NCBI GenBank assembly: GCA_011056635.1
Contig: DSEO01000152.1
Location: 330-64,329, forward strand
Direction of reading: 5' to 3'
DNA from: Bacteroides sp.
Lineage (GTDB): Bacteria > Bacteroidota > Bacteroidia > Bacteroidales > GCA-2748055
DNA: 64,000 bases
A program made the translations under genes and the position numbers. Below, one piece after another: positions 52,374 through 64,000 of the stretch. Position 1 is the stretch's first letter; every line of letters starts with the position of its first letter. A model generated the notes under the pieces. It was not told the origin of the DNA. It did not search any database and saw nothing but the letters and a program-made list of their open reading frames with translations.

Positions 52374-53045
52374 TCAGGATGATTCCTGCATATGCTCTTC
52401 TGCGGTGACCACCTGGTAGGATTTATCCACGATCAGGTCGGCTTTGGGCTTGAGCGAGGTAACCGCCTGGTGCTCTTTTTCCAGGATGGTCAGCCTGAAA
52501 TCACTCATGGCTTCTTTCAGCCTGATGATCTGGTTGATCTTTGTTTCGTGGTAGGTGAGGTCAATGAACACGCGGAGGTCCAGATCGGGGGCATTGATGG
52601 CATACAACCCGTCAATGATCAGCAGGTCGATCTTGCTGAAATCGGTAAGCAGCTTATCCACCTGCTCGGGGATCAGGTCGATGCACGGGATCATGCATTC
52701 CTGTTCCTCCTTGAAATCCCGGATGGTTTTCCGGATCTTGATCCAGTCATACTCTTCGATGCCGATCTTGTCAAATCCTTTGTTCCTCCTCCATTCCTCC
52801 CTTAGCAGGGGTTGTATCTTATAATAATTATCCGTATGGATAACCTTCACCCGAATATGCTGATCCTTCAAAAGTTTCCCCAGGGCATGTGCCAGTTCGG
52901 ATTTCCCTGAACCCGATTCCCCCGATATCCCCACAATATAACGGTACCGTTCTTCCTTGGTTTTGAGATCCTTTTCGAGATAGGAGTAAATGGTCTGGGC
53001 CGCCTCCTTGTGCATATCATTGATCAGGAGAATATCACCGAGCAT
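52374..53045 (-). CDS. uridine kinase / phosphoribulokinase-family P-loop kinase
   Basis: VGISGESGSGKSELA P-loop, IHTDNYYK and LIIDGLYA. The start overlaps the upstream GH65 gene by 11 nt. Confidence 0.65.
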   Translation of the reverse strand: MLGDILLINDMHKEAAQTIYSYLEKDLKTKEERYRYIVGISGESGSGKSELAHALGKLLKDQHIRVKVIHTDNYYKIQPLLREEWRRNKGFDKIGIEEYDWIKIRKTIRDFKEEQECMIPCIDLIPEQVDKLLTDFSKIDLLIIDGLYAINAPDLDLRVFIDLTYHETKINQIIRLKEAMSDFRLTILEKEHQAVTSLKPKADLIVDKSYQVVTAEEHMQESS

Positions 53046-56000
53046 GGAACATGTTTTTTACGTTTAACATATGTGAAACAGGTTCATCCTGTGTCACTTC
53101 GAAATCAGTTCCGCAAAGATGTACTTTTATTTTTTCCTTTCCTGAGCTTTTGACGGAAATTTTTATCTCCCTTTGGGATATCCGGACATGATAACCGACC
53201 CCTTTGAATAAAAAATTGAATTTCAGACTCTTCCAGTGACCGGGAAGGGACGGCACCAGGGCTGGTTTGTCTCCCCGCAGGTCCATTCCCCCGAAAACAG
53301 CCATCACATCATATACCGTGCCTGCCATAACACCGCAGTGGATCCCTTCCCCCGTCGTACCCCCCTGGATATCCACCAGGTCGCTTCTCAATGCATCCAT
53401 AAACAGTCCCCAGCCGGTTTCCCGCAGACCCATTTCATTGGCGAGCCTGGCATGCACCAGCCTGCTGAGGGTGGAGCCGTGTGAGGTGCGCCGGATGTAA
53501 TAATCATAATTGATCCTGGCGTAATTCTCCGGCAGTGAATATCCCATTTCCCGGATGATCCTCGTTAACTCAGCCTCGCCAAGGTTGTAAAAACACATCA
53601 GGAAATCTGCCTGTTTGGACAGCTTGTAATCATCCGGTGATTTTCCTTCTGCCTTGAGGATGCGGTCCAGCCTGTGAATATCCCCGTAGGCTTGCCTGTA
53701 ATGATCCCAGTCCAGTTCCTCCAGGTCAAAATATCCCCTGAATTGTTCCACCACCCCTTCATCCGAAATGTGCAATGCCAGGTTGTGACGGATCCTGTTC
53801 CACCGGTCCAGGTCCGCTTCTTTCAGTGAAAGGCGGTCAAGGATGGGATCAGACTTACCCGGGGTCAACTCCTCCAGGAGTGCAATTGCCCGGTCCAGGA
53901 TCCAGCTCACCATGATGTTGGTGTAGGCATTGTCCGTCAGGCCTCCCTCTGAAGAATCCGGCAGCTTTTCATGGAACTCATCCGGTCCCATTACTTTATG
54001 AATGTGATACTTCCCGTCAGTTTCATCCGGGACGGACTTGCTCGCCCAGAATTTGCATATATCCAGAAGGAGCTCGGCCCCGAAGGCTTCCATGAACTCC
54101 AGATCGTCCGTGGCTTGATAATATTTGCACAGGTTAAAGGCAATGGCCAGGGAAATGTGGCGCTGAAGAGAGCTGTAATCGTCTCCCCACTCGCCCGACA
54201 GGGGGTTCAGGTGGATCACCTGGGTCTCCTCCCGTCCGTCGCTCCCGCTCTGCCACGGGAACATGGCCCCCTCGTACCCGTGCTCCTTTGCGTAGGCCCT
54301 TGCTGCATCCAGTCTGCGGTAACGGTACATCAGCACCGACCGGGTGACCTCCGGGAAATGAATGTTATAGAGCGGCAACATGTAAAGCTCATCCCAGAAA
54401 ATATGTCCGCGGTATGCCTCCCCGTGCAATCCCCTGGGCGGTATCCCGGAATCCAGTCCCGCATGGTGGGGCGAAGCGGTAACCATCATGTGGAATAGAT
54501 GTAACCGCACCAGACGCTGTGCCTCCCGGTCGCCTCCGATCTCCACATCGATCCTGTCCCAGATCTCCCTCCAGCTCCGTTCAGAACTTTTCATTTCACC
54601 GTCATAGTCCGTCATGCTTTCCACGGTAGCCGAGGCTCGTGCCAGGGGATCTTCCACGCCCGGATCCCTGGAGGTGTAAATGGAGATCAGCTTTTCAAGC
54701 ACGATCCCGCAGTTTTTGCTTCCCTGCAATTCAAAGATGTGTCCGACAAGGCCCCTTCCTGTATGCCCGGTCTGTTTGACGAGGTGATGTTCGTTGTGGA
54801 ATATCCGGTTCCTCGCACACGTGGCGATCATGATATTTGACCGGGTTGTCTTCACAAGCAGTTTCACTCGGTCCTCCGACACTTCCTCCGAAACCGGAGC
54901 GAGGTGTTCCTGGTTGAGATCGTCATAACGTTCCACACCTGCATTCCGGTGATCTCCCCTTATCTCTGACCTGATCTCGATCTTTCCCTCATAATTACAC
55001 GGTGTGACGGTATAACGGATGGCCGCTTTGTGCGGGTCTGACATGCTGGCAAACCGTGAAGAGCTGATCTTTGTTATCCTGCCCCTGTTATCTTCAACCA
55101 CCATCTCCCTGGCCAGCACCCCCTGATGGAAGTGCAGGGTCCGCGTGATGCTTTTGATTCTGAAGGGCGATGCTGCGTCTGTGTCCAACCAGGGGCCGTC
55201 CTCCACCCGGAAGGTGACCGGCAGCCAGTTGGTTGCGTTCACAAAATCCTCATTCTCGATGTCCCTGTCCGCCACCCTGGAAACCAGCCTGTTATAAAGG
55301 CCTGTAATGTACGTGCCCGGGTAATTGACCTTCCCGGCCCGGCTTTCCTCCGGAGCCCCCCTCGTGCCGAAATAACCGTTCCCCACCGCGAGCAATGCTT
55401 CCCTGGACCGTTCCCCGGCAGGCTGGTAATCGTAATACCGGAGCCGCCACCCATCTTCATGAATTCCCTTTTCAAACCAGTTGTTGATCTCTTCCAGGCT
55501 GATCTCTCCCAGGTCTTCCACCACGATATCACCCCCGCCAACCAGTAACTCCCTGATATTATCTTCCCTGGCCACGCCCAGTACCAGTCCGAAATTTCCC
55601 TTCTTCCCGGCCTGTACACCGGAGACTGCATCCTCCACCACAACCGACCGGTGGTATTCCACACCAAGCCTGTCACAGGCGGTGGTGAAGATATCGGGTT
55701 CAGGTTTCCCCTTCAGACCGATCTCTGCAGATACGACGCCGTCCACACGGGTCTCGAACAGATATTCAAGCCCTGCCTTTTCCAGAACCGGCCTGCAATT
55801 CATGCTGGAAGAAGCCACACCGATCCGGACGCCTGCTGCTTTCAAAGCGCGGATCAGGGATACGGAGGTCTCGTATACCTCCACCCCACTTTCCTCCAGC
55901 ACCTGGTTGAACATCATGTTTTTCCTGTTCCCCAGCCCGCATATGGTTTCCTCTGCGGGATCATCTTCCGGTGCTCCCTCCGGGATCTCAATTCCCCTTG

Positions 56001-56226
56001 ATTCCAGGAAAGAGGCAACTCCTTTGTACCTGGGTTTCCCATCCACATAGGGAAGGTAATCACCCGAATGGGTGAATTCCCGAAATGGCTCCGCAAACCT
56101 TTCCTCCCTTGATTTCAGATAGTCATCAAACATCTTTTTCCATGCGGCGGCATGGACCAGGGCAGTCCTGGTAATCACTCCGTCCAGGTCAAAAATAACC
56201 GCATCGAATTTGGGTTGAAAAGCCAT
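53035..56226 (-). CDS. beta-phosphoglucomutase (HAD) :: glycoside hydrolase family 65 phosphorylase fusion
   Basis: N-terminal AVIFDLDGVITRT with VVEDAVSGVQAG (beta-PGM/HAD). The C-terminal ~800 aa carry GH65-like motifs (GHIFWDELYMLP, MFPWQSGSDGREETQ, VMGPDEFHE). Confidence 0.85.
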   Translation of the reverse strand: MAFQPKFDAVIFDLDGVITRTALVHAAAWKKMFDDYLKSREERFAEPFREFTHSGDYLPYVDGKPRYKGVASFLESRGIEIPEGAPEDDPAEETICGLGNRKNMMFNQVLEESGVEVYETSVSLIRALKAAGVRIGVASSSMNCRPVLEKAGLEYLFETRVDGVVSAEIGLKGKPEPDIFTTACDRLGVEYHRSVVVEDAVSGVQAGKKGNFGLVLGVAREDNIRELLVGGGDIVVEDLGEISLEEINNWFEKGIHEDGWRLRYYDYQPAGERSREALLAVGNGYFGTRGAPEESRAGKVNYPGTYITGLYNRLVSRVADRDIENEDFVNATNWLPVTFRVEDGPWLDTDAASPFRIKSITRTLHFHQGVLAREMVVEDNRGRITKISSSRFASMSDPHKAAIRYTVTPCNYEGKIEIRSEIRGDHRNAGVERYDDLNQEHLAPVSEEVSEDRVKLLVKTTRSNIMIATCARNRIFHNEHHLVKQTGHTGRGLVGHIFELQGSKNCGIVLEKLISIYTSRDPGVEDPLARASATVESMTDYDGEMKSSERSWREIWDRIDVEIGGDREAQRLVRLHLFHMMVTASPHHAGLDSGIPPRGLHGEAYRGHIFWDELYMLPLYNIHFPEVTRSVLMYRYRRLDAARAYAKEHGYEGAMFPWQSGSDGREETQVIHLNPLSGEWGDDYSSLQRHISLAIAFNLCKYYQATDDLEFMEAFGAELLLDICKFWASKSVPDETDGKYHIHKVMGPDEFHEKLPDSSEGGLTDNAYTNIMVSWILDRAIALLEELTPGKSDPILDRLSLKEADLDRWNRIRHNLALHISDEGVVEQFRGYFDLEELDWDHYRQAYGDIHRLDRILKAEGKSPDDYKLSKQADFLMCFYNLGEAELTRIIREMGYSLPENYARINYDYYIRRTSHGSTLSRLVHARLANEMGLRETGWGLFMDALRSDLVDIQGGTTGEGIHCGVMAGTVYDVMAVFGGMDLRGDKPALVPSLPGHWKSLKFNFLFKGVGYHVRISQREIKISVKSSGKEKIKVHLCGTDFEVTQDEPVSHMLNVKNMFHAR

Positions 56227-56311: not shown

Positions 56312-58528
56312 ATGAAAAGGCTCATTTTAGCGTCCAATCTGCTTCCGGTACATATCACTCCGCGGGATGGAGAATATGTTATTGAAAAATCAGACGAACA
56401 GACCATTTCGGGTTTGCAAAATTTCTATGAAACTAACTTTCCGAGGTGGGTGGGAATGACAGGGCTGGAAAACCATGAATTCACCCCCGGGGAAATCGAA
56501 CTGCTGGAGAGCAAACTGGACCGGTTCAACTGTGTGCCGCTTTTCCCTGCGGTCCGTGACCATAACCTGTACCTGCATGGATTCGCCCGGAACACCCTGT
56601 GGCCCCTGTTTCATTACTTTACGGAAAATGTGGTGTACAACGAGGATTCCTGGAAAGCCTATGTGAAAATCAACAGGCTCTTTGCGGAAAAGATCCTTCA
56701 GCTGGTTAATGACGGTGATATCCTGTGGATCCATGACTATCACCTGATGCTTGTGCCGCAGATGATCAGGGAGCAGAAACCGGGTATATCCATCGGACTG
56801 TTCATTCATGTGCCCTTTCCTTCCTTCGAATTGTTCAGGCTGCTTCCCTGGTGCCAGGAAGTCATCGAGGGAATGCTCGGAGCCGATCTGATCGGTTTTC
56901 AGACCTATGACCATGTCAGGCATTTTATGAGTTCGGTGAGGCGGCTGACCGGGGTCGATTCCATTTTCAACCGGATCACCATGGGGGAAAGGACCATGAA
57001 GGTGGATGTTTTCCCCAAGGGGATCAATTACGAACGTTTCAGGAAAAAGACCCTCATGCTTCACAGTGACGAAGCCTCTCCTTCCCGGATCAAGGAAGAA
57101 ATGGAAATATTCAAAAGATCCGGAAACCTGGAAAAGCTGATCCTTTCCATCGACAAGCTGGACTATACAAAGGGCATCCCTCAAAGGCTCAGGGCATTTG
57201 AAAGGTTCCTGCAAACCAATCCCGATTACCTGGGAAAAGTGAGCATGATCGTACAGGCCATCCCCTCGGGAGAAACCAGTGAATCCTTCTTCAACCTGAA
57301 GAGCAAGGTGGATGAACTGGTGGGAAGGATCAACGGGAATTACGGGACCATCAACTGGACCCCGGTCAGGTACCTGAACCAGGTATTCACCATGGATGAG
57401 CGCATTGATCTCTATTCCCTGTCGGACATCGCCCTGATCCTGCCACTGCGCGACGGGATGAACCTGGTTGCCAAAGAGTTTGTTGCTTCCCGGCACGATG
57501 GCAGGGGAGTGCTTATTCTGAGCGAACTGGCCGGAGCTTCCAAGGAACTGCATGAAGCCATCCTGGTCAATCCCAACAACCTGGATGCCATAGCGGAGGC
57601 CATTAAGACAGCTATCGAGATGCCAGGGGAAGAGCAGGTACGCCGGAACCGGGTGATGATGCAGCGGCTGGAGCGCTATACGGTGGAACGGTGGGCCCAC
57701 GAATTCGTAAACAGCCTGGAAGGCGTCAAGGAATTGCAGGAGGTTTCACTTACCAGGAAGATCAACATCACACACATGCGGCAGATTGTTGGCGCATACA
57801 TGGAAGCAACAAAACGCATCCTCTTTTTGGATTATGACGGAACCCTCTCCTGGTTTGTCAAGAATCCCGAAGATGCTAAACCGGATAAAGCGCTTTATGC
57901 GATCCTCGAAGATCTGACCCGGGATGAGAAAAATACGGTGGTGATCATCAGCGGAAGGGATAAGGAGACCCTGGGAAGGTGGTTTGATAACGGCTGGAAT
58001 ATTCATTTTATCGCGGAGCACGGAGTCTGGTTGCGTGAACCGGGAGGTGAGTGGCACATGATGGAGCAGATCGATAACGCATGGAAGGAGTCGGTTCAGC
58101 CCCTGCTGGAATATTATGTGGATCAAACACCCAGGAGTTTTATAGAGCATAAGAACTTCTCCCTGGTCTGGCATTACAGAGATGCAGACCCGGACCTGGG
58201 GATGCAAAGGGCCTGGGAACTGAAGGATGAACTCCGGACACTCACCTCCAACCTGCACCTGGAGGTGATGGATGGAGATAAAGTACTGGAGATCAAATAC
58301 GCGGGGATCAACAAGGGAAGGGCAGCGCTGCAGAAGATGGGCACAAACACCTATGATTTCATCTTTGCGGTGGGAGATGACTGGACCGATGAATATACCT
58401 TCGATGCCATGCCGGAGAATGCCTATACCATCAAAGTAGGCGCCAGGACCACGAAAGCATCCTATTATATTGAAAGCGTGGACATGGTCAGGGACCTGCT
58501 GTCGCGCTTTAAGTCCGGACAGGATTGA
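56312..58528 (+). CDS. otsA: bifunctional trehalose-6-phosphate synthase (GT20) / trehalose-6-phosphate phosphatase
   Basis: GT20 motifs (LWIHDYHLML, LILPLRDGMNLVAKEF) followed by HAD motif ILFLDYDGTL and a GDDWTDE phosphatase domain. Confidence 0.9.
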   Translation: MKRLILASNLLPVHITPRDGEYVIEKSDEQTISGLQNFYETNFPRWVGMTGLENHEFTPGEIELLESKLDRFNCVPLFPAVRDHNLYLHGFARNTLWPLFHYFTENVVYNEDSWKAYVKINRLFAEKILQLVNDGDILWIHDYHLMLVPQMIREQKPGISIGLFIHVPFPSFELFRLLPWCQEVIEGMLGADLIGFQTYDHVRHFMSSVRRLTGVDSIFNRITMGERTMKVDVFPKGINYERFRKKTLMLHSDEASPSRIKEEMEIFKRSGNLEKLILSIDKLDYTKGIPQRLRAFERFLQTNPDYLGKVSMIVQAIPSGETSESFFNLKSKVDELVGRINGNYGTINWTPVRYLNQVFTMDERIDLYSLSDIALILPLRDGMNLVAKEFVASRHDGRGVLILSELAGASKELHEAILVNPNNLDAIAEAIKTAIEMPGEEQVRRNRVMMQRLERYTVERWAHEFVNSLEGVKELQEVSLTRKINITHMRQIVGAYMEATKRILFLDYDGTLSWFVKNPEDAKPDKALYAILEDLTRDEKNTVVIISGRDKETLGRWFDNGWNIHFIAEHGVWLREPGGEWHMMEQIDNAWKESVQPLLEYYVDQTPRSFIEHKNFSLVWHYRDADPDLGMQRAWELKDELRTLTSNLHLEVMDGDKVLEIKYAGINKGRAALQKMGTNTYDFIFAVGDDWTDEYTFDAMPENAYTIKVGARTTKASYYIESVDMVRDLLSRFKSGQD

Positions 58529-58739
58529 TCCCAGGATCCTGTAAATCAACGTGATATTTCATTGTTCAATGCATGTTCAGAAAAAAAATGTGACTTTTCA
58601 ATTTTTTTTCGTCAAAGTGAATAAATAAAGTATGCATCAGTGATTATCATATTAAAAAATAGCATAGCATTGCATCATTCTTTGAACCAATTTTTATATA
58701 AAAAGCGAATCACTTTAAATACCGCAGTTTCATAGAGAA

Positions 58740-60005
58740 ATGAAATCGCCTCGGTCGTTGTCATTGACCTCGTCGGTGTACGAGGAAAATGAGACAGAGC
58801 CCCCGGACCTTCTTCCCTCCGGAGCCATTCCCCAGCACAATCACAGAAAAAACGGAGATGTCCTTACTCCTCCCCACAGCGAGAGATCATCGCGGTTCAG
58901 GGAGCAGTATTATCCGGATATTCCCGTGAGTAAATGGAACAGCTGGCAATGGCAGTTAACAAACAGCATCACAACCTGGGAACAGCTGGGAAGATTTTTC
59001 AGCCTGTCCGGCCAGGAGATTCAGGCGGCGCTTATGAAGCACCGCCTGCCCCTGCGGATCACTCCCTATTATGCGAGCCTGATTGATCCTGAAAACCCGT
59101 TGCAGCCCATACGGCGGACCATGATCCCCGTGGTACAGGAATTGCTTATCACCCCAGAAGAACAGGCCGACCCCCTGGGCGAGGAAAATCAGAGTCCGGT
59201 TCCCCAGCTGGTTCACAGGTATCCTGACCGGGTCCTGTTTCTGACAACCGGTGTATGTGCGGCTTATTGCAGGTACTGCACCCGTTCACATATGGTATCA
59301 AAAAAGGACAAGGTCCACACCAGCCTGAGTGTTTGGGACGCAGCGCTGCATTATATCCGGAGTCACCCGGGGATCCGTGATGTACTCTTATCCGGCGGGG
59401 ATCCGCTGACCATGTCCGACAGCAGGCTGGAATACCTGCTTTCCAGGCTGAGGCTCATCCCCCACGTTGAGATCATCCGGATCGGCACCAAGGTTCCCGT
59501 GGTCCTCCCCCAGCGAATTACTCCCGGACTGACAAAAATGCTCAGAAATTACCATCCGCTGCTGATGAGCATTCATTTCACCCATCCCGATGAGATCACT
59601 CCCGAAGCATCCTTTGCCTGCAACCGGCTGGCCGATGCGGGAATCCCGCTTGGCAGCCAGACTGTGCTGCTGAAAGGGATCAATGATACAGTGGAAACCT
59701 ACAAGAACCTGGCCCAGAAGCTGCTGAAGATCAGGGTAAAACCCTATTACCTCTACCAGTGTGACCCCATTCCGGGGTCCTCCCATTTCAGGACACCGGT
59801 ATCCAGGGGTCTGGATATCATCAGGGGGCTTCGCGGATTCACCTCGGGGTATGCCATCCCCCATTTCGTGATCGATGCCCCGGGAGGAGGAGGAAAGATC
59901 CCGCTGCTGCCCGATTACGTGGCGGAAAGAAATGAAGAGGGTTACCTGCTCACGAACTATGAGGGGAAACAATACCTGTACAAAGAACCCCTGGACCTGT
60001 TCTAA
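58740..60005 (+). CDS. kamA: lysine 2,3-aminomutase (KamA/AblA type)
   Basis: Near-collinear with clostridial LAM as I remember it: ITPYYASLID, HRYPDRVLFLTTGVCAAYCRYC, VLLSGGDP, PYYLYQCD and FVIDAPGGGGK. Both lysine-binding Asp positions and the PLP lysine are present. Confidence 0.9.
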   Translation: MKSPRSLSLTSSVYEENETEPPDLLPSGAIPQHNHRKNGDVLTPPHSERSSRFREQYYPDIPVSKWNSWQWQLTNSITTWEQLGRFFSLSGQEIQAALMKHRLPLRITPYYASLIDPENPLQPIRRTMIPVVQELLITPEEQADPLGEENQSPVPQLVHRYPDRVLFLTTGVCAAYCRYCTRSHMVSKKDKVHTSLSVWDAALHYIRSHPGIRDVLLSGGDPLTMSDSRLEYLLSRLRLIPHVEIIRIGTKVPVVLPQRITPGLTKMLRNYHPLLMSIHFTHPDEITPEASFACNRLADAGIPLGSQTVLLKGINDTVETYKNLAQKLLKIRVKPYYLYQCDPIPGSSHFRTPVSRGLDIIRGLRGFTSGYAIPHFVIDAPGGGGKIPLLPDYVAERNEEGYLLTNYEGKQYLYKEPLDLF

Positions 60006-60017
60006 CAGATAGGAAGG

Positions 60018-61763
60018 ATGATCATCATCAGGCGCATCCAGGATGCCACGCTACCCTCTGACAGGAGTGCCATCGAGCAGGTCCAGGAGATCCTCAGGAG
60101 CCGGTTCCCCGATGTGAGGGAAAAATACATCGAAAACATACCCGAACAGCTTACTGATCCCCTCAAATACAGGTTTCGCACCTCCCTGCTGGTTTCCGAA
60201 AACAGGAACGGCACCGTCCGGGGTTTCTCCCTGATGTACCACGCGCCTGACCTACACTTCAGTTACCTCGATTTCATCGCCACCCGGAAGGAGGTAAAAT
60301 CGGGGGGGATCGGAAGCTCGCTGTATGAGAGCGCCAGGGAAGAGGCCCTGAAGCTCAAATCGGTCGGCCTCTTTTTTGAATGTCTGTCCGATGACCCATC
60401 CGTCTGTCGCAATGCAGCGCTGATCGAGGAAAACAAAGCCAGACTGAAGTTCTATGAGCGCTTCGGTGCATTCCCGCTGATCAATACCAGGTATGAGACT
60501 CCTGTGAATCCTGACAAAGATGCGTGTCCGCCATACCTCGTGTGTGATTTCCTGGGACAGCCGCCTGTGGGTAAAAAGACCGCCAGGAAGATCGTGAGGG
60601 CGATCCTGCAGCGGAAATATGAGGACATTGTGACGGCGGATTATATGGATGATGTGGTCCGGTCCATCCAGGATGACCCTGTGAAACTCAGGGAACCCAG
60701 GTATACAAAACCGAGGAAATCACCCGGAACCGGGGCAGCCGCTCAACCCGGCCCGGACCTGATCCGTCTGACCATCAACGACCGCCATTCCATCCACCAT
60801 GTCCGCGACAGGGGTTATGTGGAATCCCCGGTCAGGATTTCCACCATCGCAGCAGAACTGAATGCCTCCGGCCTCTTCAGGGAATTGTCCGTCCGAACAT
60901 TTTCGGAAAAACATATCCAGGCGGTACATGACGCGAAATACATCCAGTATTTCAAGAGGGTGTGCGCTGACTTGCCAGCCGGAAAATCCATCTACCCCTA
61001 TGTGTTCCCCGTCAGAAACAGCGACAGGGCCCCGTCGGACGATTCTGTGCTGGCCGGTTATTACTGCATCGATACCTTCACCCCGCTGAACAGCAATGCA
61101 TACCTGGCTGCCAGAAGAGCTGTGGATTGTGCAATGACCGGCGCCGAATATCTCCTGGGAGGGGGCCGTGCGGTATATGCCCTGGTCCGCCCCCCCGGTC
61201 ACCATGCCGAAAGGAAAGTCTTCGGAGGATTCTGCTACTTCAACTCGGCAGCCATTGCCGCTCATTACCTGTCCCATTACGGAAGGGTTGCCATGCTGGA
61301 CGTGGATTACCACCACGGCAACGGCCAGCAGGATATATTTTACCATCGAAAGGATGTGCTGACCATATCCATTCACGGGCATCCCTCCTTTGCCTATCCC
61401 TATTTCAGCGGTTACTCCGAAGAAAAAGGAGAGGGTGAAGGCCTGGGGTTCAATGTGAACTATCCCATGAAGGAACAGCTTACCGGTGAACTTTACAGGA
61501 CGGTACTTGGCCGGGCCATGGAGCGGATCCGAAGGTTCAAACCGGATTTCCTGGTGGTGCCCCTGGGTCTGGATACATCCAGGGGAGATCCAACGGGCAC
61601 CTGGAGCCTGACCGCGTCGGATTTCAGCCTGAATGGACAGATCATCGGGAAATACAGGTTCCCGACACTGTTTGTACAGGAAGGCGGTTATAAGAACAGG
61701 GTGCTGGGCGTGAATGCCAGGAAATTTTTCCAGGGCTTTCACACGGTATTTTTCAATCAATAA
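60018..61763 (+). CDS. GNAT-like acyltransferase :: histone-deacetylase/acetylpolyamine-amidohydrolase-family fusion
   Basis: Residues ~1-230 have GNAT-like features (KSGGIGSSLYE, ARLKFYERFGA). Residues ~250-575 carry the HDAC-family motifs RPPGHHA, LDVDYHHGNG, GLDTSRGDP and QEGGY. Confidence 0.85.
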   Translation: MIIIRRIQDATLPSDRSAIEQVQEILRSRFPDVREKYIENIPEQLTDPLKYRFRTSLLVSENRNGTVRGFSLMYHAPDLHFSYLDFIATRKEVKSGGIGSSLYESAREEALKLKSVGLFFECLSDDPSVCRNAALIEENKARLKFYERFGAFPLINTRYETPVNPDKDACPPYLVCDFLGQPPVGKKTARKIVRAILQRKYEDIVTADYMDDVVRSIQDDPVKLREPRYTKPRKSPGTGAAAQPGPDLIRLTINDRHSIHHVRDRGYVESPVRISTIAAELNASGLFRELSVRTFSEKHIQAVHDAKYIQYFKRVCADLPAGKSIYPYVFPVRNSDRAPSDDSVLAGYYCIDTFTPLNSNAYLAARRAVDCAMTGAEYLLGGGRAVYALVRPPGHHAERKVFGGFCYFNSAAIAAHYLSHYGRVAMLDVDYHHGNGQQDIFYHRKDVLTISIHGHPSFAYPYFSGYSEEKGEGEGLGFNVNYPMKEQLTGELYRTVLGRAMERIRRFKPDFLVVPLGLDTSRGDPTGTWSLTASDFSLNGQIIGKYRFPTLFVQEGGYKNRVLGVNARKFFQGFHTVFFNQ

Positions 61764-61783
61764 AGCAAAAAAGAACAGCGGGA

Positions 61784-62830
61784 ATGAAACAGCGGAGAAA
61801 TAAACAGTCGACTACCATCGGGCTCACCTATGACCTGAGGGACGAGTACCTGGCCATGGGCTTTACGGAAGAGGAGACGGCCGAATTTGACCGGGAAGGG
61901 ACCATCGTGGCCATTGAAACCACCCTGGAGAGCCTGGGTTACCGGACCGACCGGATCGGTCACATCTGGAACCTGGTGCGCCGCCTGGAGCGGGGCGACC
62001 GCTGGGATATGGTATTCAATATTGCAGAGGGACTCTACGGTGCGGGAAGGGAAGCCCAGGTGCCCGCACTGCTGGACGCCTACCGGATCCCCTATGTGTT
62101 TTCCGGTCCCCTGATCCTGGCGCTTACCCTGGACAAGGCGATGACCAAGGTGATCGTGAAAGATGCCGGGATCGCCACCCCGGAGCACCGGGTGGTGTAC
62201 CATCCCCGGGACATTGCGAAAATCGATCTCCCCTGCCCGCTCTTTGTAAAACCACTGGCCGAGGGAACCGGCAAGGGGATCGATCCCCGGTCGGTCATCC
62301 GTGACCAGGAACAGTTATATGAAGTTTGCAGGCTTCTTCTTTCCAGATACAACCAGCCCGTGCTGGTGGAGACCTACCTGGGCGGAAGGGAGTTCACCGC
62401 GGGGATCGTGGGGACAGGCGACCGGGCCAGGTGCGTGGGGGTGATCGAGATCATCCTGAAGGACAATGCGGAAGAGGGAGTATATTCCTATGTGAACAAG
62501 GAGGAGTGTGAGGAGCGGATCATCTACAGCCTGACGGATCCGGCGGCAGTTGAAGTGTGTGCGGATATGGCCCTGAAAGTCTGGAAGACCCTGCGGTGTG
62601 AGGATGCCGGAAGGGTGGATATCCGCTTTGACGAAGACGGAAAGGCATATTTCCTGGAAGTCAATCCCCTGGCGGGACTGCACCCCGAGCACTCGGACCT
62701 TCCCATTCTGGCCAAACTTCACGGTACCGGCTACAGGGAGCTGATGAAAATGATCATGGATTCGGCAGTCCTGAAACTCAAACAAACCGTGCATGAAACA
62801 GGTACTCCTGTTGATCAATACGCTCACTGA
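61784..62830 (+). CDS. D-alanine--D-alanine ligase-family ATP-grasp protein
   Basis: ATP-grasp layout: LDKAMTKVIVKDAGIATP, LFVKPLAEGTGKGI, VLVETYLGGREF, GRVDIRFDEDGKAYFLEVNPLAGL. Confidence 0.85.
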   Translation: MKQRRNKQSTTIGLTYDLRDEYLAMGFTEEETAEFDREGTIVAIETTLESLGYRTDRIGHIWNLVRRLERGDRWDMVFNIAEGLYGAGREAQVPALLDAYRIPYVFSGPLILALTLDKAMTKVIVKDAGIATPEHRVVYHPRDIAKIDLPCPLFVKPLAEGTGKGIDPRSVIRDQEQLYEVCRLLLSRYNQPVLVETYLGGREFTAGIVGTGDRARCVGVIEIILKDNAEEGVYSYVNKEECEERIIYSLTDPAAVEVCADMALKVWKTLRCEDAGRVDIRFDEDGKAYFLEVNPLAGLHPEHSDLPILAKLHGTGYRELMKMIMDSAVLKLKQTVHETGTPVDQYAH

Positions 62831-63770
62831 CAAGCCTTCCGGGGACGAACTGGATGTACTTGTCCAGGCCGAAGCGGTTGAAAAGGCGCTTGAAAATCTA
62901 GGACACAGCCATTCCAGGGCTTACTGCGGACTGAACCTGGAATACATCCGGGTCCTCCTGGAAACCAGGTCCCCCGACCTGGTCTTCAACCTGGTGGAGA
63001 GCATGGCAGGCAAGGGCTCCCTGATCCATCTGCCCGCCTGGCTGCTGGAAACCTGCGGAATCCCGTTCACCGGCTCACCCGCCTATGCCCTGATGATCAC
63101 AACAGACAAAGTGCGCACCAAATCCATCCTCCGGCAACAGGGGATCCCCACGCCGGACTGGATCCTGCCCGGGAATTGGGATAAGCGGCCCGAAACCGGA
63201 ATAAAATATATCCTGAAACCCATCTGGGAAGACGGTTCCGCCGGGATCACCGATGCATCGGTGGTGGAGGGCGGGACATTCGATTTTGAAGGATTTTCGG
63301 GGGACCATAAGTTCAGGGATTATTTCCTGGAGGAATACATTGACGGCAGGGAATTCAATATCACGCTGCTGGCGGGGCGCGGCGGACCGGAAGTGATGCC
63401 GGTGGCAGAGATGCGGTATGTGGATTATCCGGAGGACAAGCCCCGGATCCTCAATTTCGCCTCCAAATGGGACGAAGGCTCTTTTGAATATGCAAAGACC
63501 ATCCGGAGCTTTGATCTGCCGGAAAAGGACAGTGAACTTTTGTCCCGTTTGAAGGAGATCAGTCTGGAGTGCTGGGGGGTGTTTGAAATGAAGGGTTACG
63601 CCAGGGTGGATTTCCGGGTGGACAGGAATCAGAATCCCTTCGTGCTGGAGGTGAACGCCAATCCGTGTATCTCGCCGGATGCGGGATTTGTGGCCGCGTG
63701 TGCGCATGGAGGAGTGGACTACGATTCCATGATCGGGCGGATCATTACGGATACAATGCTACAAGCATGA
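62793..63770 (+). CDS. second Ddl-like ATP-grasp protein
   Basis: TDKVRTKSILRQQGIPTP, ILKPIWEDGSAGI, LEEYIDGREF and ARVDFRVDRNQNPFVLEVNANPC. The ATG start overlaps the upstream gene by 38 nt. Confidence 0.8.
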   Translation: MKQVLLLINTLTDKPSGDELDVLVQAEAVEKALENLGHSHSRAYCGLNLEYIRVLLETRSPDLVFNLVESMAGKGSLIHLPAWLLETCGIPFTGSPAYALMITTDKVRTKSILRQQGIPTPDWILPGNWDKRPETGIKYILKPIWEDGSAGITDASVVEGGTFDFEGFSGDHKFRDYFLEEYIDGREFNITLLAGRGGPEVMPVAEMRYVDYPEDKPRILNFASKWDEGSFEYAKTIRSFDLPEKDSELLSRLKEISLECWGVFEMKGYARVDFRVDRNQNPFVLEVNANPCISPDAGFVAACAHGGVDYDSMIGRIITDTMLQA

Positions 63771-64000
63771 ATACGGAAAAACACGGGAAGCAGGCAGGCG
63801 TCATCGGGCTCAGGAGTGAGGTACGGACAGGCGACCCGGCCATTGTGGAAGAGATTGTCCGCTCCACCGGTTTCTTCCGGGAAGACGAGGTGACAGTTGC
63901 CGTGGAACTGGTCCGGGAACGCCTGGATAAAGGAGCCGAAAGCGGGTATGAGTTTATCTTCGCCCAGGCAGGCAGCCAAACCGTGGGATACAGCTGCTTC
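63767..64000 (+). CDS. GNAT-family N-acetyltransferase, 3' end cut by window
   Basis: My own translation: MNTEKHGKQAGVIGLRSEVRTGDPAIVEEIVRSTGFFREDEVTVAVELVRERLDKGAESGYEFIFAQAGSQTVGYSCF. ATGA overlap with the upstream stop. The frame is open to the window end. It looks like a GNAT N-terminal half. Confidence 0.6.
   Translation, partial: MNTEKHGKQAGVIGLRSEVRTGDPAIVEEIVRSTGFFREDEVTVAVELVRERLDKGAESGYEFIFAQAGSQTVGYSCF

Follow-up and report, generated by a model that had tools for sequence, protein, structure and literature searches.

Organisation of the locus

The 3' end of a 64,000-nt stretch of Bacteroides sp. DNA (GenBank assembly GCA_011056635.1, contig DSEO01000152.1, positions 330 to 64,329; hereafter the window) carries an operon of five co-oriented genes, which starts at position 58740 and runs past the window end. 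These genes encode a KamA-type aminomutase, a GNAT acetyltransferase fused to a deacetylase (the fusion), two ATP-grasp ligases (AG1 and AG2) and a second acetyltransferase, GNAT2 (Table 1). In the original prediction, which was made from the letters of the window and their translated open reading frames, five genes had been placed at these positions with junctions of +12, +20, -38 and -4 nt, downstream of a 211-bp AT-rich gap; the open reading frame coordinates confirm the genes, and the junctions and the gap have been confirmed as well. The kamA and fusion genes are separated by a 12-nt spacer (TAAcagataggaaggATG) and the fusion gene and AG1 by one of 20 nt, AG1 and AG2 overlap by 38 nt, and AG2 and GNAT2 share a 4-nt ATGA overlap. 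The ATG at 62793, from which the 38-nt overlap arises, is backed by N-terminal alignment of AG2 with its orthologs; gene callers place the start 18 nt later. The predicted domains were likewise recovered in Pfam, as Radical_SAM and LAM_C, a weak GNAT followed by Hist_deacetyl, Dala_Dala_lig_C twice, and GNAT.

Table 1. Positions of the operon genes, the two fusion domains and the upstream region in the window.
Feature	Position	Strand	Description
kamA	58740..60005	+	421 aa, KamA-family radical-SAM lysine 2,3-aminomutase
GNAT::deacetylase fusion gene	60018..61763	+	581 aa
Fusion, N-terminal GNAT acetyltransferase domain	60018..60716	+	aa 1-233
Fusion, C-terminal Zn-dependent deacetylase domain	60804..61763	+	aa 263-581, acetylpolyamine-amidohydrolase type
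AG1	61784..62830	+	348 aa, divergent Ddl-like ATP-grasp ligase
AG2	62793..63770	+	325 aa, second divergent Ddl-like ATP-grasp ligase, directly 3' of AG1
GNAT2	63767..64000	+	78 codons in window; full length 176 aa, to window-equivalent 64297
AT-rich intergenic region	58529..58739	.	211 bp, presumed promoter region

A public protein (P0001) matches the fusion at 100% identity, and three public contigs (L001-L003) carry the fusion amid the same surrounding genes. In L001, which represents the same contig and whose proteins match all five window proteins at 100%, the predicted continuation beyond position 64000 could be followed: GNAT2 (L001 13750-14280) is complete at 176 aa and ends 297 nt beyond the window. 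At a distance of 3 nt from its stop codon stands a terminator-like hairpin whose tail is T-rich, with a 90-nt gap and then an unrelated AAA ATPase and glycoside hydrolases beyond it, and therefore the operon consists of exactly five genes. The AT-rich region upstream has a GC content of ~0.35, as against ~0.55 in the genes and flanks. It holds no Rfam element at E<=1 and no credible precursor peptide, the open reading frames there being only 20-31 aa long and AT-driven. No sigma-54 -24/-12 motif was found upstream of the window operon, unlike in the Desulfovibrio loci described below.

The aminomutase

KamA carries the Pfam domains Radical_SAM and LAM_C, scores 353 bits against the KamA family model TIGR00238 (cut-off 199), and matches the lysine 2,3-aminomutase structure of Clostridium subterminale (2A5H) with 436 bits; glutamate and arginine aminomutase models score lower. 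The CxxxCxxC motif and residues R134, D293, D330 and K337 are present in the window protein and in 45/45 module orthologs, where Asp293 and Asp330 are presumed to hold the epsilon-ammonium group of lysine and Lys337 to be the pyridoxal phosphate lysine. Since these residues are kept throughout, the substrate is predicted to be free lysine, and the active-site signature marks the enzyme as a putatively lysine-specific one, which bears out the earlier claim of a lysine-type 2,3-aminomutase.

By the same kind of comparison, KamA is not predicted to be an equivalog of AblA, the aminomutase of the N-epsilon-acetyl-beta-lysine route. Its score against the AblA model TIGR03820 (456.2 bits, covering profile positions 4-361 of 417) lies under the cut-off of 525.4 because the C-terminal Zn-binding part is missing: the ortholog alignment shows neither the Zn-site C268 nor the C-terminal Cys tail, and the protein belongs to a short-C-terminus clade with an N-terminal extension of ~53 aa.

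The paired ATP-grasp ligases

AG1 and AG2 match PF07478 (Dala_Dala_lig_C) with 88.7 and 55 bits, respectively, and D-Ala-D-Ala ligases (Ddl) are their sole detectable relatives, at 25-29% identity, which is also the range of identity between AG2 and AG1. With the Ddl/Van family they share the fold, every ATP, Mg and acyl-phosphate residue, and their best sequence matches in PDB (87 bits for AG1 and 61 for AG2) and NCBIfam. The original prediction had left room for these proteins being ordinary cell-wall Ddl enzymes, and the comparison now sets them apart. They fall far under the Ddl cut-offs (150.5 and 109.4 bits against NF002378, the best-scoring model, with a cut-off of 243; all other Ddl/Van NCBIfam models score lower), substrate residues such as S150 and Y216 are replaced, and the two are paired and operon-linked to KamA. 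They also occur in Dehalococcoidales, cultured members of which are known to lack peptidoglycan.

In the numbering of E. coli DdlB, the ATP/Mg residues K97, K144, K215, R255, D257, E270 and N272 of AG1 are invariant in 50/50 orthologs and E180 is kept in 49/50, while the same eight catalytic residues of AG2 are invariant or nearly so among 51 orthologs. The positions that contact the substrate in Ddl differ from it in both proteins: H63->E, Y216->E/R/W and L282->D in AG1 (50 orthologs), and H63->E, S150->A/G, Y216->W (51/51) and L282->G in AG2 (51 orthologs). Because the ATP, Mg and acyl-phosphate residues are kept and the Ddl substrate residues are replaced, AG1 and AG2 are predicted to be catalytically competent ligases of new specificity, and not true Ddl enzymes. 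The acidic replacements, H63->E in both proteins and L282->D in AG1, suggest basic substrates. A loss of Ddl Glu15 in AG1 was also considered and was dropped, as an invariant AE[FWY]D after an insertion probably equals this residue.

The two acetyltransferases and the fused deacetylase

GNAT2 carries Acetyltransf_7 and Acetyltransf_1 in Pfam, and its acetyltransferase domain appears intact. Its best NCBIfam match is RimI, at 34 bits and under the cut-off, and no AblB (TIGR03827) match was found in NCBIfam even at E<=1. It aligns with 132 bits to PDB entry 2R7H, which is Dde_3044 of Desulfovibrio G20, a structural-genomics entry without an assigned function that was named from genomic context alone.

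The N-terminal domain of the fusion is recognised weakly as Acetyltransf_1 (21.7 bits) and, like GNAT2, has no AblB match in NCBIfam even at E<=1. An AlphaFold2 model of residues 1-260 (predicted local distance difference test 86, predicted template modelling score 0.81) adopts the GNAT fold, with residues 234-260 forming a low-confidence, disordered linker, and the top Foldseek matches in PDB are GCN5/PCAF, AAC(6')-Ii and PaiA, at a probability of 1.0. The acetyl-CoA loop G97-x-G99 and the residues F145-Y146-E147 are invariant in 12 fusion homologs from different phyla, as are the catalytic residues H395-H396, D428, D430, H432, D519 and Y558 of the deacetylase domain. The latter domain scores 248 bits against PF00850 (Hist_deacetyl), and its best PDB matches are the acetylpolyamine amidohydrolases (APAHs) 9gkz, 6phr, 3men and 3q9b, with 207-238 bits. 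HDAC6 entries aside, polyamine deacetylases reach 238 bits as against ~120 bits for protein deacetylases. Both domains of the fusion are thus predicted to be intact, and the deacetylase to be of the polyamine type. The fusion is very strongly conserved across phyla. N-epsilon-acetyl-beta-lysine shares its four-carbon diamine spacing with N-acetylputrescine.

The closest described relatives of the deacetylase domain are the cluster-4 APAHs (M. ramosa ApaH, PsApaH and PA1409), with which it shares the Zn site, the catalytic His-His and Tyr, and ~45% identity. Of the RPPGHH, EGGY and PIS motifs given for acetyl-specific polyamine deacetylases of this cluster (Graf et al., PMC11532494), the domain carries the first two, whereas the PIS position reads PTG. 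Cluster-4 enzymes stand alone, have an N-terminal L1 lid and belong to polyamine catabolism; here the alignment to APAHs begins only at residue 269-273, the lid is replaced by the disordered linker and a whole GNAT domain, and the context is that of beta-lysine.

Conservation and composition of the module

A pattern search with the fusion N-domain in a one-genome-per-species collection returned at least 592 confirmed genome stretches (at least 600 matched), the best 80 of which were analysed. These come from Bacteroidota, several Desulfobacterota orders, KSB1, Calditrichaceae, Dehalococcoidales and Nitrospiraceae, as well as Planctomycetota, Omnitrophota, Woeseiaceae, Bacillota and others. Among the 40 evaluable loci, with at least 5 kb on each side, all five genes are present in 28, some in four and the fusion alone in eight, so that co-conservation of the genes across phyla, on which the original prediction depended, is upheld. 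The genes occur in at least six orders, among which the position of the fusion shifts; AG1 is followed by AG2, never separated from it, in 47/47 full genome loci. Co-linearity in 47 independent genome loci and six arrangements is far beyond chance.

A reverse scan of metagenome contigs, seeded with AG2, gave at least 590 confirmed stretches, 17 of them with enough flank to be read. KamA-AG1-AG2 is found in 15/17; 12 of these 15 also carry GNAT2, a profile search confirming its absence from the other three, and four carry the fusion. KamA-AG1-AG2, with or without GNAT2, occurs without the fusion in 11/17. The invariant core is therefore KamA-AG1-AG2, with GNAT2 as a usual member and the fusion as a frequent but dispensable accessory. 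The five-gene set of the original prediction is thus co-conserved in at least six orders, in phyla that include Bacteroidota, Desulfobacterota, Chloroflexota, KSB1 and Calditrichota, but it is not the minimal unit. Deacetylation had been proposed there as a built-in maturation or turnover step; as the fusion is dispensable, obligatory maturation or removal of a protecting group is weakened, and remodelling or turnover fits better.

Two types of module can be told apart. In type I (Bacteroidota, most Desulfobacterota, KSB1 and Woeseiaceae) AG1 shares 51-86% of its residues with the window protein, while in type II (Dehalococcoidales, Desulfuromonadales and Calditrichaceae) AG1, AG2 and GNAT2 are ~35% identical to their window counterparts, KamA 47-54% and the fusion 54-60%. 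Across both types KamA and the fusion remain 47-60% identical to the window proteins, and this slower divergence suggests that they handle a constant beta-lysine part of the product, and AG1, AG2 and GNAT2 a variable part.

Some loci depart from these arrangements. In four from Bacteroidota/Rikenellaceae (L034, L054, L076 and L080) a lone fusion is followed, in 4/4, by a conserved gene of ~790 aa and a 182-aa membrane protein, and a periplasmic-looking protein of ~515 aa lies upstream of the lone fusion in three of them and in L060, which may point to a further context for the fusion, independent of the module. A Halobacteriovorax metagenome-assembled genome (L051 1348-7089) has a 567-aa Gln_deamidase_2 protein, a single ATP-grasp ligase, GNAT2 and the fusion, with no KamA within the 5 kb available upstream, and L069 has only the fusion and GNAT2; neither variant gave a clear lead on chemistry. 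In Desulfuromonas sp. AOP6 (L004 16102-17235) a second, stand-alone HDAC-family deacetylase of 377 aa, ~35% identical to the fusion deacetylase domain, lies just downstream of the module.

Proposed pathway

It appears somewhat probable that the operon is a self-contained pathway to an undescribed, soluble, beta-lysine-based small amide compound of the cytoplasm. In the first and well-supported step, KamA would turn free L-lysine into beta-lysine. AG1 and AG2 may then each form one amide bond through an acyl-phosphate, joining beta-lysine by its amino groups or its carboxylate to two units, either amino acids or further beta-lysine, so as to give a di- or tri-peptide-like molecule, of which GNAT2 would cap a free amino group with the use of acetyl-CoA. 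In an accessory step, the epsilon-amino arm of the beta-lysine moiety, which resembles putrescine, would be the target of the fusion, with one domain adding an acetyl group and the other removing it; the fusion would thereby set or recycle the acetylation state and not form an obligatory part of synthesis. The product could serve as a solute (stress or compatible), as a cation of the polyamine kind, or as a peptide with redox or buffer function, and its synthesis would be regulated. Since the module has no acceptor, anchor or exporter conserved alongside it, a product that is soluble in the cytoplasm is the simplest assumption. The fuller version of this proposal is offered with less confidence, as a tentative one: KamA-AG1-AG2(-GNAT2) would make a new N-acetylated, di- or tri-peptide-like beta-lysine compound, common in strict anaerobes of more than 10 phyla, that serves as stress solute, polyamine surrogate or redox/buffer peptide, with the fusion setting its charge on demand.

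Several points weigh against this proposal or parts of it. The substrates assigned here to the two ligases, GNAT2 and the fusion are putative, and the region of AG1 that corresponds to Ddl Glu15 aligns ambiguously. The product may have a macromolecular acceptor, and, as the fusion stands alone in 8/40 loci, its role may be a general one that has nothing to do with beta-lysine. Across the related loci the module has no transporter or other gene as a universal partner, and it looks self-contained. A link to osmoprotection is weak. Outside the window contig, trehalose genes adjoin the module in just one close relative, and searches of 14 upstream regions turned up no Na+ or c-di-AMP riboswitch. 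It has also been reported that yodP-kamA of B. subtilis can make N-epsilon-acetyl-beta-lysine yet that this compound plays no part in osmoprotection (PMC9049628), so that KamA together with a GNAT need not mean osmoprotection. An osmolyte island was rejected on the grounds that OtsA/OtsB adjacency is confined to close relatives and an MscS neighbour is present in only 3 loci. A role as an osmolyte is only one candidate among several.

Comparison with known systems

The nearest parallel is the AblA/AblB route of methanogens and green sulfur bacteria, with Bacillus yodP-kamA, which likewise starts with a lysine 2,3-aminomutase and uses acetyl-CoA-dependent GNAT chemistry. The abl logic seen in the original prediction holds as far as the lysine-type KamA and the presence of GNATs are concerned; it fails in that neither GNAT belongs to the AblB family and in that KamA scores 456 against an AblA cut-off of 525 and lacks the Zn-binding C-terminal part. 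Unlike in the AblA/AblB route, the tightest partners of KamA here are two ATP-grasp ligases, and a deacetylase is often added.

Other systems resemble the operon in logic. The osmolyte pathway to N-acetylglutaminylglutamine amide (Ngg/AsnO) combines a GNAT with ATP-grasp ligation to give an N-acetylated peptide-like solute; however, Ngg is a single GNAT::ATP-grasp fusion from another ATP-grasp branch, the AsnO amidotransferase is absent here, and the building block here would be beta-lysine made in situ. The mycothiol, bacillithiol and glutathione routes also build a small cytoplasmic amide by ATP-dependent ligations, and that of mycothiol includes a deacetylase and a final GNAT acetylation, but the operon has no glycosyltransferase and shows no evidence for cysteine, and its enzymes are non-homologous beyond the ATP-grasp and GNAT folds. 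Microviridin-type clusters, which make ribosomally synthesised and post-translationally modified peptides, match the operon in having ATP-grasp ligases, two of them, together with an N-acetyltransferase. The ligases here are, in contrast, Ddl-like and not MdnB/MdnC-like, and an aminomutase for free lysine is present. A peptide pathway of this ATP-grasp kind was rejected, since the gene junctions are 12 nt, 20 nt or overlapping and the 211-bp leader is without a precursor open reading frame.

Lysine fermentation (kamA-kamDE-kdd-kce-kal) was rejected too, as a Pfam search of the 21.7-kb locus found no beta-lysine 5,6-aminomutase or downstream enzymes, and its partner genes recur in none of 80 related loci. 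A defence system was discarded because the five proteins have no PADLOC match at E<=0.001. The view that the gene set matches no characterised cluster was upheld in Pfam, NCBIfam, PADLOC and the literature, in which no description of the gene set was found; the papers on the P. carbinolicus genome and on the Na+ riboswitch treat only ablA/ablB.

Alternative explanations

One alternative is that the ligases attach beta-lysine or a short peptide to a protein, lipid head group or envelope polymer, the charge of which is tuned by the GNATs and the deacetylase. Some ATP-grasp enzymes, RimK for one, do modify proteins; among the fold matches of the fusion N-domain are GCN5 and PCAF, which acetylate protein lysines; and the best curated match of GNAT2, albeit a weak one, is the protein N-terminal acetyltransferase RimI. 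It has also been reported that deacetylases of the PsApaH type deacetylate some peptides (PMC11532494). However, no acceptor gene, small open reading frame or membrane-anchoring enzyme is conserved beside the module, and the ligases lie in the Ddl branch, which joins free amino acids, and not in that of RimK. Modification of elongation factor P (EF-P) by EpmA/EpmB/EpmC was rejected as KamA scores 256.6 bits against the EpmB model TIGR03821 (cut-off 369.3); no EpmA or tRNA-synthetase-like gene lies within 10 kb of the operon, and EF-P of Bacteroidota is reported to work unmodified (PMC12856214). Beta-lysylation of a macromolecule is therefore regarded as unlikely.

A bioactive beta-lysine peptide in the manner of the streptothricin side chain, made in an inactive N-acetylated form and activated by the deacetylase, is harder still to credit. 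Beta-lysine is found in several antibiotics, acetylation followed by deacetylation is a known means of self-protection, and acetyltransferases and a deacetylase are combined in the operon. Against this, no exporter, resistance gene or nonribosomal peptide synthetase is conserved with the operon, and the deacetylase is often absent. Moreover, at least 592 stretches from more than 10 phyla with 50-60% identity form the pattern of core physiology and not that of a sporadic natural-product cluster.

A further proposal, to which a similarly low probability is given, concerns the fusion only and is compatible with the other readings. It would be a regulatory writer and eraser that reversibly acetylates lysines of the pathway enzymes and leaves the metabolite untouched. 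In pairing a GNAT with a classical deacetylase, the fusion mirrors AcuA/AcuC (PMC11532494; PMC13121692), and it is dispensable for the core, is also found away from the module, and is very strongly conserved. However, its deacetylase domain is about twice as close in score to small-molecule polyamine deacetylases as to protein deacetylases, and, where present, the fusion lies inside the operon and not beside a target gene.

That the locus merely makes the N-epsilon-acetyl-beta-lysine osmolyte in the abl manner, with the deacetylase recycling it and AG1 and AG2 as unrelated cell-wall Ddl paralogs, is very improbable, for although a lysine-type KamA and GNATs are present, the deacetylase type would suit an N-acetyl diamine, and trehalose synthesis genes adjoin the operon in the window, AG1 and AG2 are linked to KamA more tightly than either GNAT, miss the Ddl cut-offs and the S150 and Y216 substrate residues, and occur in the Dehalococcoidales discussed above, and neither GNAT matches AblB.

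Cultured carriers and regulation

The module is widely distributed and is present in cultured model organisms. Contigs 99% identical at the GNAT2 protein to Desulfovibrio alaskensis G20 carry, in order, a gene for a sigma-54 activator, KamA, AG1, AG2 and GNAT2, and the fusion was not found near the module in these G20-type contigs. In D. mangrovi, whose genome is complete, these genes are arranged likewise and the fusion is present too. A search with the D. mangrovi fusion returned orthologs at 64-100% identity in five named species of Desulfovibrionales, namely D. mangrovi, Pseudodesulfovibrio pelocollis, D. ferrophilus, Desulfomicrobium escambiense and Desulfocurvibacter africanus, and in Geoalkalibacter halelectricus, with no ortholog from D. 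alaskensis among them, which suggests that G20 is without the fusion.

In both Desulfovibrio loci a perfect TGGCAT-N5-TTGCT -24/-12 element is located 5' of kamA (L169 6310-6510 and L171 6290-6480), adjoined by the gene for the sigma-54 activator, a 478-aa enhancer-binding protein with a receiver-like N-terminus. CGGAAC-N5-GTTCCG palindromes are found 5' of kamA as well, with a pair in the G20-type locus, one or more in D. mangrovi and further copies in two other Desulfobacterota loci, and activator orthologs lie near the module in four more loci. These elements indicate that sigma-54 and an activator of its own control the operon in Desulfobacterota. In the D. vulgaris sigma-54 regulome paper there is no mention of the module. 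Riboswitch control was rejected, with none in the 5' gap of the window at E<=1 and none at gathering score in 13 related loci (Rfam). On the opposite strand 3' of the G20-type module (L169 10684-14179) lies a SiaC, DUF6272, SpoIIE phosphatase and GGDEF cluster, which resembles the SiaABCD c-di-GMP switch.

If the proposed pathway is true, a class of metabolites has been overlooked in environmentally dominant anaerobes, among them sediment Desulfobacterota, Dehalococcoidales, Bacteroidales, KSB1 and Calditrichota. The question is directly testable because tractable carriers of the module exist (D. alaskensis G20, D. mangrovi, Desulfocurvibacter africanus, Desulfomicrobium escambiense, D. ferrophilus and Geoalkalibacter halelectricus), and for G20 both a transposon library and the crystal structure of one of the enzymes, 2R7H, exist. 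The answer would give a function to this structural-genomics orphan, add two new substrate specificities to the Ddl branch of the ATP-grasp ligases, and account for a GNAT::HDAC fusion that is very strongly conserved.

Neighbouring genes

In six loci (L023, L029, L030, L058, L064 and L065; five from Dehalococcoidia/Dehalococcoidales and one labelled Deltaproteobacteria) a 200-aa integral membrane protein of the MarC family is encoded inside the module, between GNAT2 and the fusion, and is a candidate exporter of the product. Major facilitator superfamily transporters are found near the module in 6 loci and MscS channels in 3, and a MarR-type regulator lies upstream in 14, nearly all of them from Dehalococcoidales or related Chloroflexota.

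In the window, the operon is preceded by a gene for a 738-aa OtsA::OtsB synthase/phosphatase fusion (56312-58528, + strand; 690 aa from the later start placed by gene callers). Divergent from it is a gene (53035-56226, - strand) for a 1063-aa protein, in which a HAD/beta-phosphoglucomutase-like domain is fused to a GH65 phosphorylase. Directly after the terminator on the other side, a 368-aa ATPase_2/AAA_14 protein (L001 14370-15476, window-equivalent ~64387-65493) has weak PADLOC matches to the candidate system PDC-S01 (E 8e-6) and is probably unrelated to the operon. The end of one module-bearing metagenome contig (L164 11596-11686) carries the 5' part of a group II intron (RF02001, 65 bits).

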